A model generated the notes under the pieces. That model ran no database searches, was not told the DNA's origin, and saw nothing but the letters and a program-made list of their open reading frames with translations. Positions 3 to 6,265 of a stretch of DNA of 32,000 bases are shown here, in pieces; the stretch's first letter is position 1, and each line of letters begins with the position of its first letter. Location: assembly GCA_021498095.1 (NCBI GenBank), contig JAIZWK010000001.1, positions 870,001 to 902,000 on the forward strand. Direction: 5' to 3'. Origin of the DNA: Candidatus Harpocratesius repetitus (lineage in GTDB: Archaea > Asgardarchaeota > Lokiarchaeia > Sigyniarchaeales > Promethearchaeaceae). The position numbers and the translations under genes were made by a program.

Positions 3-3000
3 CCCTTTGGAATTGGTCGAAATGGCCTTATTGCTGGAGCGGGTGCGTCTGCATTTGTTCTAGAAACTCAATCTGAATCAAATAGACGTGGGATTAAGCC
101 AATCGTTGATTTATTAGGAACACAAATAAGCAATAGTGCATATCATGGATCTCGTCTTGATAAACTAGACATTACGGAAGAATTCAATCGTTTTATTACA
201 ACAATGGTTAATCAACACAAAATCACAAAATCTGAAATTGCTCGTAAAGGTATGTTTGTCAGTCATGAAACTTACACACCGGCTCGAGGTGGAAGTTCTG
301 AATCAGAATTGGAAGCATTATCTAATACTTTCGGACCAGATGTGAGTAAATTACTCATTATCAACACCAAAGGATTTACTGGTCATCTTATGGGAGTTGG
401 TATGGAAGAAGCTGTTGCGATAAAATCAATTGAGTACGGGATTATTCCTCCAATTGCAAATTTTGGTAAAATAGATCCAAAATATAGCAAGTTTTACTTC
501 TCAACTGGGATTAAAGAACGAAAAGATTATGCAATTCGGTTTGCTGCAGGTTTTGGATCCCAAATTGCAATTTTAATGTTCCGAAAAAATACACCCACTA
601 ATAGAAAGGATGAAAAAGTGTATCATGCTTGGCTTCAATCTGTTGCAGGTTCAACTTCTCTCTTTTTAGATGGCCGAGTTTTAAAAGTAGACTCAAAACA
701 GCAAATTTCATTCTCACAAAAGCAATCAATTCCATCTATTTTACAAACATCAAAATCAAATGAAACAATTTTAGCCACCTTGATTCAAATTATTGCTGAA
801 AAAACAGGTTATGATATCTCAGATCTTGAACCACAGTACCATTTAGAAGAAGATTTAGGGATTGATACGATTAAACAAGCAGAGATTTTCGGAGAAATTG
901 GAGAGAAATGGAATATTGAGGAAAATCAGTCTTGGAATATTAGTGAAATGCAAAGTATTGCGGATATAGCCAAAGTATTATCGCGAATGGTGAATGACTC
1001 ATCTCAGATTTCATCCCAGACTTCAAGTAATAATCATATTAATCAAAATAATTGGGAAGAAAAAGTCCGGGCAATTATTTCGGAAATTACAGGTTATGAT
1101 CATGAAGATATTCAATTGGATTTTGATTTAGAAGAAGATCTGGGGATTGATACCATAAAACAAGCAGAGATTTTTGGTAGAATTAGAGAAGAATGGCAAA
1201 TTCCTGAAGAGACTAGTATCAATCTTACAGAATTTCGTAGTATTAATGATATTCTTGCCTTTTTATCTAAAAATTTCTCTGGTTCCAGCTCTCAAACTAA
1301 AAATACCATTGATCTAAGTACATCAGAAACAAATATTGACCAACCAACTCAAATCAAAGAAGAGGAGATCAAGAAAATTATATCTGAAGTGACTGGTTAT
1401 GATCTTGAAGATATTCAATCTGATTTTGATTTAGAAGAAGATCTGGGGATTGATACCATAAAACAAGCCGAAATTTTTGGGCGCATTAGAGAAGAATGGC
1501 AAATCTCTGAAGATACTCAAATAAATCTAGCTGATTTTCGAACGATTCAAGATATTTTAACTCTTTTGAATTCAACTAAAAAAGTAAATAATTCAATAGA
1601 TAATAGTGTTGCAACTGTCGATAATTCTCAGATCTCTAAAAGTAATGATAAAAATAGAAGTGAATCCAATATAGATCAAGTTAAATCAATTATTGCAGAA
1701 ATTACAGGTTATGATTCAGAAGATTTGGAACTAGATTTTGATTTAGAGGAAGATCTGGGGATTGATACCATAAAACAAGCGGAAATATTTGGTCAGATTC
1801 GTGAGAAATGGCAAATTTCAGATGAATCTTTGATTAATATCGCTGAATTTCGGACAATAAGAGATATTTTAAATTACATCACAAAAATTAATGAAAGAAA
1901 TCTAAGTTCCCAAGAAATTCCCCAAATTGCGAAATCATCAAATGAAAATAGAACAGTAAACGAAATTATAGAATCACGAATAAAATCGATAATATCAAGA
2001 ATTACTGGATATGATAACGAAGATTTGGAGTTAGATTTTGATTTAGAAGAAGATCTGGGGATTGATACCATAAAACAAGCTGAAATATTTGGCTCTATTA
2101 GAGAAGAATGGCAAATTTCGGAAGAAACTCAAATAAATTTAGCAGAATTCCGAACTATTGGAGATATTGTAAAATACTTAATTCCAATTGTTTCTGATCA
2201 TGATAAATCAGATCAGTTGGATTTTGAAAAGTCTGATTCTTTCCTATCAAGAACTAATGATGAGAATGATCTTGAGAATAAAATTGATGTTAAGATCAAA
2301 ATTTACTCTATTAAACCAGTTTTATTAAATAAAAGTGAAAAAATAGATGAAAACAAAAAGATATTTGAAATTCCCATGGTTTTCATTGAATTTAATTCTT
2401 ATTCTGATTATGGTACAAAAATAAAGGAAGATTTGTCTTCAAAAGGAATCAAACTAATCCCTATATTATTTAAATATGAAACTGGCTTTGAAGGAATCTC
2501 AAGTTTTGTCGATAATATCAAAAAACATGACATAACCAATGGCTACAGCATTTGTTTATATTGTAGACCATTTTCAAAAGAAGAAAATCTCAATCAGGCA
2601 ACTACGCACTTTTCTAACATTTTCAATTTTATTAAATTACTTGGTCCAGAATATATCAAATATGGATTTCTTCTTTCTAAAAATGATAATATCGATGAAT
2701 CTATGATATCAAATCCTATTTCAGCTGCATTTTCAGGATTTTTCAAATCATTGAGTAAAGAAATGTCTTTTAAATTCCTTCATCTTTCCTTCACTACGCC
2801 TCTACTAGTATCTTCCGAAATTTTAAAGGACCACTCTGTGTTTGAAATCCAAATAGATGAACAAGGTAATAGATATACTCTTACTAGAATAAAAATAGGA
2901 AATCAACCATTGAATCAAGCAAGAAAGATTTCTTCAGATGATTTAGTTGTGGTTACTGGAGGTGCAAGGGGAATTACTTTTGAATGTTTAAATAAATTGA

Positions 3001-5474: not shown

Positions 5475-6265
5475 TGCAAAAGGAAGAATTAGATATTATT
5501 GTTAGAGAAGAAAAGCTACATGGAATTTTATATATCCCAGAGAATAATAATCATCCCAATGGTTCCAATTTGCTTTTTCCATTAATAATTCATATTAATG
5601 GTATGCCTGGTACTTCTCCTGAAGATGATGAAGATCGTTTTGCCAAAAAATTTACAGAACATGGAATTGCTTATTATTGCTATGATCATCAAGGAGTTCG
5701 CCAAAGTTCTGGTGTCTTTACATATTTTTCAGCACAAGCAAATATTGAATATGTAGTGGATTATTTAGTGCATCATCGATTTATAGATCCACTTCAAATT
5801 GGATTATTAGGAGAAAGTTTCGGTGGAGCAATGGCTCTTTGTCATGCAGCACGTGATTATCGAATTTCAGTTTTAGCACTTCGATCTCCAGTATCAGATA
5901 CAGAAATTGTTACTACATATTCATTTTTTGATGATTTGCTCAAAATTTGGACTAGGAACAAGCAAATGAGATTTCCACCTGACAAAAATATGAAAAATCT
6001 TTATATTTCTCAAACTCATCACTATAATCCCAAAAATATGGCAGACTCAATTAATCAGCCTGTTAAAATCATTGCTGGGAAGCGAGATGAATTATTGGGA
6101 GATAAAGGATTTGAGGATTTGTTTAAGAAATTAAACTCCACCCAAAAAGAATTCGAAATATTCCCAAAAGCAAATCATAATTTTACTAATCCAAAGGATT
6201 TTGAAAAAATGAGGGATTCTTTTATTGAATTCTTTTCAAAACAATTCAATGGAAATTCTGAATAA
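5474..6265 (+). CDS. Alpha/beta hydrolase (candidate thioesterase/esterase)
   Basis: GESFGG nucleophile elbow (Ser codon 5816), GKRDE acid region and C-terminal NH-N-F His. TAATG overlap with the PKS stop and AGGAGGAG at 5461-5468. Confidence 0.88.
   Translation: MQKEELDIIVREEKLHGILYIPENNNHPNGSNLLFPLIIHINGMPGTSPEDDEDRFAKKFTEHGIAYYCYDHQGVRQSSGVFTYFSAQANIEYVVDYLVHHRFIDPLQIGLLGESFGGAMALCHAARDYRISVLALRSPVSDTEIVTTYSFFDDLLKIWTRNKQMRFPPDKNMKNLYISQTHHYNPKNMADSINQPVKIIAGKRDELLGDKGFEDLFKKLNSTQKEFEIFPKANHNFTNPKDFEKMRDSFIEFFSKQFNGNSE

Follow-up and report, generated by a model that had tools for sequence, protein, structure and literature searches.

Does an Asgard archaeon carry its own machinery for building acyl chains on carrier proteins? 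Archaea are usually said to lack fatty-acid-type synthesis, and the question is raised by a 32,000-nt stretch of the genome of Candidatus Harpocratesius repetitus (the window; genome positions 870001-902000, the genome being one contig of 4,361,485 bp), which opens inside a gene for a multidomain megasynthase. An initial annotation of the window had described a multi-carrier synthase resembling type I polyketide synthases (PKS) as well as fatty acid synthases (FAS) and had raised the possibility that its host is an Asgard archaeon. That host assignment was borne out: its kin in GTDB include Ca. Heimdallarchaeum aukensis and Promethearchaeota. On balance, we consider it probable that the product of this native and intact gene is a self-contained type I synthase that works iteratively, that it represents an all-in-one form, specific to Asgard archaea, of the PfaA-like Type R/S secondary-lipid synthases, and that it acts by the mechanism proposed below.

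In the window, the gene occupies a single open frame on the forward strand (3-5474; 1,823 codons), which encodes the last 1,823 aa of a 3,795-aa protein (full-length protein P0003). The open reading frame (ORF) spans genome positions 864087-875474, running 5,913 nt beyond the 5' edge of the window to an ATG at 864087. Pfam and NCBIfam searches of the window translation recovered the string of ketosynthase (KS), five acyl carrier proteins (ACPs), ketoreductase (KR), dehydratase (DH) and phosphopantetheinyl transferase (PPTase) reported in the initial annotation, all of it within this one frame. The feature had been drawn as 3-6265, however, and its last part (5474-6265) proved to be a separate alpha/beta-hydrolase gene rather than the PPTase. 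The N-terminal 1,972 aa, upstream of the window, supply a FabK-like pseudo-enoyl reductase (pseudo-ER), an enoyl reductase (ER), a first ketosynthase (KS1), an acyltransferase (AT) and most of a second ketosynthase (KS2). The full order is FabK-like pseudo-ER, ER, KS1, AT, KS2, five ACPs, KR, DH and Sfp-type PPTase (Table 1). When this full string was annotated, the motifs checked in KS1 (DAACASS, HGT, GH), AT (GHSLGE, R, xAFH) and KS2 (Cys-His-His) were intact. The KS2 residues Cys1912, His2060 and His2100 align with the KS1 triad and were unchanged in 14 diverse family members.

The pseudo-ER (aa 1-345) had no Pfam match, and BLAST against the ER domain returned almost nothing (E 0.025). Its AlphaFold model (pLDDT 85.8) matched FabK enoyl-ACP reductases (TM 0.75-0.81, E 2.5e-15). 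It reads EAGGF where the ER reads ECGGH, so that Phe replaces the His of the E(A/C)GGH motif. A genome-wide profile search placed the sole KS, ACP and PPTase domains of the genome in the megasynthase gene, and FabA-type DH (PF07977) had no match anywhere in the closed genome. All activities of the fatty-acid elongation cycle, together with self-activation, are predicted to be encoded in one ORF. At the DNA level the ACP repeats share 57-71% identity, and Tandem Repeats Finder left the array unreported.

Each of the five ACPs carries the sequence DLGIDTI, in which Thr takes the place of the Ser that canonically bears phosphopantetheine. When the domains were aligned with HMMER to solved carriers, this Thr stood opposite the pantetheinylated Ser of PigH (DLGVDSI) and AcpM (DLDIDSL); the conserved Ser of the (D/E)xGxDS(L/I) attachment motif of PF00550 carriers is replaced by Thr in five of five domains. 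Thr also occupies the carrier site in nearly all of the 120 best homologues, bacteria included, and 80 named GTDB loci contained 245 Thr-type carrier motifs versus 3 of the Ser type. A small number of Heimdall members have Ser there instead, in two of their three carriers. The occurrence of both residues at the carrier site in Heimdall members suggests that the hydroxyl is the functional group. A Thr-for-Ser site in hundreds of bacterial and archaeal members would challenge the textbook rule for carrier proteins. In two metagenomic homologues of 4,336-4,494 aa (P0070 and P0100), the Thr-type array ends in an extra Ser-type carrier (ELGIDSM and EFGIDSV), so that both types coexist in one protein.

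The hydrolase gene follows directly: its ATG overlaps the megasynthase stop codon (TAATG), AAGGAGGAG lies just upstream of its start, and the two genes are predicted to be translationally coupled. Its catalytic triad (Ser115, Asp205, His235) was invariant in 7 orthologues, and the gene adjoins the megasynthase in Asgard relatives too. The nearest folds to its model (pLDDT 71.7, moderate) were lipases, monoacylglycerol lipases and esterases; lower-ranked matches included the fungal alpha/beta-hydrolases GrgF and DcsB, which act in polyketide pathways. The modelled fold fits an acyl-thioester or ester hydrolase, though nonspecifically, and the enzyme may be a chain-release thioesterase or an acyl-transferring enzyme. 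The fold search was also tried as a discriminator between thioesterase and acyltransferase; it returned only generic lipase and esterase folds and did not separate the two.

The megasynthase is further flanked by a complete acyl-CoA carboxylase set recognised by Pfam, consisting of carboxyltransferase (CT), biotin carboxylase (BC), biotin carboxyl carrier protein (BCCP) and biotin-protein ligase (BirA). The CT stop codon ends 78 nt before the megasynthase start. We compared the cassette by tblastn of its proteins on 20-35-kb stretches of Asgard genomes, grouped by family (f1, f3 and so on). The six genes BirA, CT, megasynthase, hydrolase, BCCP and BC were kept in f3, f13 and f18, with local rearrangements; the f15 stretch contained CT, megasynthase, BCCP and BC, and the hydrolase and BirA were not in the region fetched. 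The same-genus contig in this comparison stops inside the megasynthase gene. No methyltransferase, cyclase or other tailoring gene was found in the conserved cassette by the neighbourhood Pfam scan and tblastn. Of the 154 genomes of the host's order, CT (E ≤ 1e-60) and the megasynthase occurred in precisely the same 15, distributed over 4 genera; the count is given without statistics, as kin genomes are not independent. Carboxylase and megasynthase clearly come and go together, and this is the strongest functional link that we found. An Iso_dh-family gene (isocitrate/isopropylmalate dehydrogenase) lies between the hydrolase and BCCP in this genome. The insertion is peculiar to it, the gene being missing at that position in six relatives, and a role in supplying NADPH to the megasynthase is speculation.

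Of 400 genomes in the host's GTDB phylum, 68 were found to have the megasynthase. The gene is close to universal in three families on the Heimdall side, of which one is the Heimdallarchaeaceae, namely f13 (including the Ca. Heimdallarchaeum aukensis chromosome; 27 of 31 genomes), f15 (11 of 12) and f18 (12 of 12), and patchy in Loki-type ones. It occurred in 12 of 135 genomes of f3, which belongs to the host's order, and in 2 of 13 genomes of the host's own family (f1), in the host's genus only. Within one genus of the order it was present in 10 of 54 genomes, and two closed relatives (6.0 and 4.3 Mb) are without it. Beyond the phylum, a word-indexed protein search returned at least 1,889 relatives; the top ones, 47-59% identical and with equal length and domain set, came from Promethearchaeota, Lokiarchaeum, Hodarchaeota, Heimdallarchaeota and the Asgard group. 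Scanning GTDB species genomes with two KS2 motifs gave at least 600 matches, and among the matches listed were Asgard, Thermoplasmatota, Acidobacteriota, Chloroflexota, Actinomycetota, Elusimicrobiota, Myxococcota and others.

Two variants of the gene were seen along the way. Some f15 and other relatives (G055:C7:~176700-186700 and P0060-P0068) have no N-terminal FabK-like didomain and begin at KS1. On the Ca. Heimdallarchaeum aukensis chromosome (CP084166; G015:C1:485131-491434), the match is split between overlapping frames of 1,510 and 2,729 aa; the cause may be a frameshift, an error in sequencing or a gene that is truly split.

We propose the following course of synthesis. The flanking biotin-dependent carboxylase (CT, BCCP and BC, with the biotin ligase) would make malonyl-CoA. 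The AT would load malonyl units onto the five carriers, pantetheinylated on Thr by the protein's own C-terminal Sfp-type PPTase. KS1 and KS2 would then carry out condensation, with KR, DH and the FabK-like, FMN-dependent enoyl reductase fully reducing each round, and the translationally coupled hydrolase would release or transfer the finished chain. In this scheme we infer malonyl-CoA as the carboxylase product, Thr pantetheinylation, iterative full reduction, a saturated product and off-loading by the hydrolase alike. The product would most likely be a fully reduced, saturated acyl chain derived from malonyl-CoA; saturation is favoured because the genome contains no FabA-type dehydratase/isomerase.

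Several points weigh against this proposal. The pseudo-ER has Phe in place of the His of the E(A/C)GGH motif. Tandem ACPs with two KS domains are typical of secondary-lipid synthases, which often make something other than plain fatty acids. The patchy spread in the host's order is more what one would expect of an accessory lipid than of a core membrane component, whereas near-universal presence in three other families fits a more central function. The Ser36Thr mutant of E. coli ACP stays apo, the Ser-to-Thr change abolishing pantetheinylation, and Thr carriers would accordingly need a PPTase of unusual specificity. Our literature search found no lipid profile of a cultured organism carrying the gene, and no RNA data set was listed as containing window 1-6300. 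Lastly, the genome encodes a GpsA of bacterial type and three acyltransferases of the PlsC family (PlsY was not found by profile search), but PlsC-type enzymes occur in 14 of 14 family genomes, with or without the megasynthase, and so no downstream acyl-lipid pathway is tied to the gene. PlsC was for this reason dropped as support for a membrane-lipid fate, and the bearing on membrane lipids suggested by the initial annotation gained no specific support. That Asgard archaea make their own fatty-acyl chains through this cassette, on Thr-phosphopantetheine carriers, and feed them into ester-type or mixed acyl lipids is in our judgement doubtful.

Which known system does the megasynthase resemble most? 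In their account of secondary-lipid synthases, Shulse and Allen (2011; PLoS One 6:e20146, PMC3098273) describe Type R clusters from Acidobacteria, Elusimicrobia and Chloroflexi, in which a pfaA homologue with the order KS-MAT-CLF-ACP(3-6)-KR is followed by a PPTase gene and sometimes by acetyl-CoA carboxylase. They also describe a single Type S cluster from Desulfobacterium autotrophicum, proposed as a possible core FAS. The products of both types are given there as uncharacterised, and archaea are not mentioned in the paper. Set beside that account, the present protein likewise is a PfaA homologue with KS-MAT-second KS/CLF-ACP(3-6)-KR and has a dedicated PPTase with an hShxH-type P1b' motif (here LSISHS, in the C-terminal fusion). 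Its KS2 relatives also span the same phyla: Korobacteraceae and further Acidobacteriota, as well as Elusimicrobiota and Chloroflexota, are 42-47% identical to it. Our tree was built without the Type R/S references of 2011 (Koribacter, Solibacter, Roseiflexus, Elusimicrobium and D. autotrophicum). Unlike the clusters as described there, it fuses everything in one chain, with two N-terminal FabK-like domains and the C-terminal PPTase. It further differs in its Asgard host, in the conservation of the full carboxylase set and the alpha/beta-hydrolase in its cassette, and in a 'CLF' that retains Cys-His-His. Judged by these features, the closest known kind would be the Type R/S PfaA-like secondary-lipid synthases, of which the present protein appears to be an Asgard-specific all-in-one variant.

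Resemblance to PfaA of polyunsaturated fatty acid (PUFA) synthases, which the initial annotation had taken as the hallmark of the array, held at the level of the family. The KS-AT-tandem ACP-KR-DH order is shared, and the whole protein scored 1052.6 bits with TIGR02813 (PfaA), barely above the cut-off of 1010.1 and with the repeated ACPs adding to the score. The resemblance did not extend to the rest of a PUFA synthase: the genome is without PfaB, PfaC (KS-CLF-FabA-type DH x2) and separate PfaD/PfaE partners. The absence of PfaB/PfaC-type partners follows from the lack of FabA-type DH and of any other KS, ACP or PPTase gene in the genome. The protein also differs from PfaA in having a second KS between AT and the ACPs, in its fused ER and PPTase, and in its Thr carriers, those of PfaA reading LGIDSIK.

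Enediyne polyketide synthases (PKSE) are PfaA-related iterative type I enzymes with the order KS-AT-ACP-KR-DH-PPTase, self-activated by an integrated Sfp-type PPTase. They have one ACP, no ER and no second KS, and are paired with a hot-dog thioesterase and an enediyne cassette. The C-terminal KR-DH-PPTase arrangement is common to them and the megasynthase, but its five ACPs, two FabK-like domains and KS2 set it apart from the class. Neither a hot-dog thioesterase nor enediyne cassette genes were seen among its neighbours, which are the carboxylase genes and the alpha/beta-hydrolase instead. The type I FAS of fungi and of CMN bacteria (Corynebacterium, Mycobacterium, Nocardia) runs the full cycle with a TIM-barrel ER that is FabK-like and FMN-dependent, and its fungal form has an integrated PPTase; it is built as a barrel with one ACP, a PPT of the AcpS type and an MPT domain. 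The likeness to it would be one of function, a complete cycle on one megasynthase, which is here predicted from domains alone; domain order and architecture are different.

This kinship bears on the strongest competing explanation, namely that the protein is a specialised secondary-lipid or polyketide synthase. Its reducing domains would act in some cycles only, or its product would be further modified, to give a polyene, a hydroxy or keto lipid, a long-chain hydrocarbon, a diol or a similar accessory lipid rather than ordinary fatty acids. The family is catalogued as secondary-lipid synthases in the account of Shulse and Allen (PMC3098273), and multi-ACP arrays with a second KS are typical of such systems. 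The TIGR02813 score just over the PfaA cut-off, the patchy, accessory-like spread in Loki-type genomes, and GrgF and DcsB among the lower-ranked hydrolase folds point the same way, although the nearest folds are generic lipases and esterases. Against this, the protein has the full KR-DH-ER set, there is no FabA-type isomerase in the genome and no methyltransferase, cyclase or tailoring gene in the cassette, and the frequencies in f13, f15 and f18 look more like those of a housekeeping gene there. We regard this explanation as possible but rather unlikely.

A second alternative is that the Thr carriers are not pantetheinylated, and that the protein is inactive as an ACP-dependent synthase, being either a relic or an enzyme acting on CoA-bound substrates. 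The apo state of the E. coli Ser36Thr mutant would fit this, and our literature search found no report of pantetheinylated threonine. Yet hundreds of carriers from at least 10 phyla keep Thr, in every case accompanied by a PPTase, fused or adjacent, whose motifs are intact, and Ser and Thr can replace each other there. Purifying selection is evident on the ORFs, which are long, intact and about 50% identical across Asgard classes, and a dedicated carboxylase has been gained and lost along with the gene. A catalytically idle carrier array therefore seems to us very unlikely, and the active, iterative synthase proposed above remains the reading that we prefer.

Finally, the megasynthase is native to the Asgard chromosome and intact. 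An independent 10,702-nt contig, built from a public run (probably of the source sample), matched window 2051-12752 with 0 differences and bridges the megasynthase, hydrolase and carboxylase genes and beyond. Read depth was alike (21-25x) over the megasynthase and the uL2/AdoMet synthetase (MAT) region. Breaks in the short-read contigs were confined to the ACP array and an acidic repeat described below; the former arise because ACPs 2-5 share exact words of 32-47 nt. In a separate study's run, a relative about 96% identical over window 1-1148 was found on a 24-kb contig. Composition was host-like by four measures: GC content (32.3% versus 31.0% for the genome), GC at third codon positions (44th percentile), tetranucleotide distance (75th percentile of equal-sized windows) and codon usage, which was nearer the genome mean than in 99% of ORFs of at least 1,000 aa. 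As the initial annotation had stated, the gene shares its contig with PolD, an archaeal MAT and uL2, and no window ORF scanned with Pfam matched a mobile-element family; a chimeric join at 6.3 kb was looked for and not encountered.

The phylogeny agrees with long residence in the lineage. A KS2 tree with 74 rows was computed under LG+C20 (IQ-TREE quick search), the KS1 paralogues serving as outgroup; in it, 23 of 24 Asgard sequences formed one clade (SH-aLRT 96). This clade holds two extra proteins: the first is identical to an Asgard sequence, the second nests in f13. Within it, the host genus is sister to f3 of the same order (99), followed by f13 and then f18, an order in which the gene tree follows taxonomy. 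The ER-less f15 form and two other proteins lie outside the clade in a basal polytomy, and Thermoplasmatota form two clades among bacteria. Because the outgroup branch is very long and the base a polytomy, neither direction nor donor of a transfer between bacteria and archaea can be read from the tree. In our reading, the gene has probably been resident in Asgard for long, with repeated loss, or has been exchanged as a cassette within Asgard, rather than being a recent bacterial import. That the assembly is chimeric, or that contaminating bacterial DNA was joined to core genes of the archaeon, might be suggested by the mostly bacterial identity of the non-archaeal homologues and by the short-read breaks within the ACP repeats. 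It has practically no chance of being correct, given the 4.36-Mb one-contig genome, the bridging contig, the even depth, breaks confined to repeats, host-like composition, the recurrence of this cassette in further Asgard contigs that are closed or long (the Ca. Heimdallarchaeum aukensis chromosome among them) and an Asgard clade that mirrors taxonomy.

Relative to the catalogued family, what is new is the all-in-one Asgard form. Particular to this window are its closed genome with the bridging contig, the co-occurrence with carboxyltransferase in the order, the genus-restricted presence in the host's family, the Iso_dh insertion and the PlsC and GGGPS controls. The Thr-for-Ser carriers, ER didomain, second KS, hydrolase and flanking carboxylase go beyond the initial annotation. 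The cassette is a concrete candidate source of fatty-acid-like chains in archaea: complete, self-activating by sequence and with its own putative malonyl-CoA supply. It also provides a precise gene set, and carriers versus close non-carrier relatives, for lipid comparison. If acyl chains are indeed made on the Thr carriers, the archaeal side of eukaryogenesis would already have had endogenous ACP-dependent fatty-acid synthesis. In Asgard reviews up to 2026, the lipid divide is treated in terms of glycerol-phosphate and acyltransferase genes alone, with reference to Villanueva 2017, and no source of fatty acids is named. Our literature search found no paper linking Asgard or Poseidoniales to a type I FAS/PKS, PUFA or secondary-lipid synthase.

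Table 1. Features of the megasynthase locus and of the rest of the window. Positions are window coordinates unless stated otherwise; aa, amino acid positions.
Feature	Location	Strand	Basis or remarks
Biotin-protein ligase (BirA)	genome 861447-862226, upstream of window	-	Pfam
Carboxyltransferase, 524 aa	genome 862434-864008, upstream of window	+	Pfam
Pseudo-ER (FabK-like)	megasynthase aa 1-345, upstream of window	+	predicted fold
ER	megasynthase aa 344-606, upstream of window	+	FabK/NMO domain found by sequence, ECGGH
KS1	megasynthase aa 726-1197, upstream of window	+	DAACASS, CHGTST, IGHL
AT	megasynthase aa 1233-1534, upstream of window	+	GHSLGE, RGQAM, QAFHS; malonyl-type
KS2	megasynthase aa ~1690-2190; Cys1912 just upstream of window	+	Cys-His-His
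KS2, C-terminal half	3-590 (ORF aa 1-196)	+	catalytic H2060, H2100
Five tandem ACPs	753-1001, 1038-1286, 1341-1589, 1653-1901, 1953-2201	+	DLGIDTI in each
KR	2946-3617 (ORF aa 982-1205)	+	TGGARGIT nucleotide-binding motif; S...Y...N catalytic residues
PKS-type DH	3795-4682, limits approximate	+	HQIEGRPVLP = HxxxGxxxxP; Pfam/NCBIfam match ORF aa 1281-1355
Fused Sfp-type 4'-phosphopantetheinyl transferase	4797-5471	+	PIGLDLE, FWTAKEAFSKA; domain match ORF aa 1599-1788
Alpha/beta-hydrolase, 263 aa	5474-6265	+	Hydrolase_4, Peptidase_S9, DLH; GESFGG nucleophile; Ser115-Asp205-His235
Iso_dh-family gene	6335-7429	-	between hydrolase and BCCP
BCCP of cassette acyl-CoA carboxylase	7484-8038	-	Pfam
Biotin carboxylase of cassette acyl-CoA carboxylase	8138-9631	-	Pfam
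uL2	16940-17737	-	Pfam
Archaeal-type AdoMet synthetase	17808-19040	-	Pfam
PolD DP2	25115-28840	-	Pfam
Metallophos-domain ORF, read as PolD small subunit	29194-31257	+	Pfam; adjoins DP2

A side question concerned geranylgeranylglyceryl phosphate synthase (GGGPS), for which PF01884 and TIGR01768 gave no match in this genome (G000) or its genus. Two closed megasynthase-free relatives were likewise without a clear match (relatives checked: G142, G137, G136 and G135), so the absence says nothing about the megasynthase and was dropped as a lipid clue. CDP-archaeol synthase (CarS) is present at genome 2281930-2282505, the family member G132 has a clear GGGPS, and these Loki-type archaea likely have a divergent GGGPS.

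The remaining window genes include one for archease (Pfam). At 16824-17737 on the reverse strand, uL2 adjoins tRNA-Lys(CTT) and the AdoMet synthetase gene, and no other ribosomal-protein gene was found among the scanned window ORFs. A 667-aa ORF at 12551-14554 (reverse strand), without a Pfam match, has long acidic Glu/Asp/Tyr repeats, with DNA tandem repeats at 12693-12892; short-read contigs break at this ORF. A 420-aa ORF at 20430-21692 (forward strand), also without a Pfam match, has a repetitive N-terminal half rich in Lys, Ser and Thr, in which a 117-nt repeat with copies 97% identical lies at 20545-20798, and a hydrophobic, multi-pass C-terminal half.

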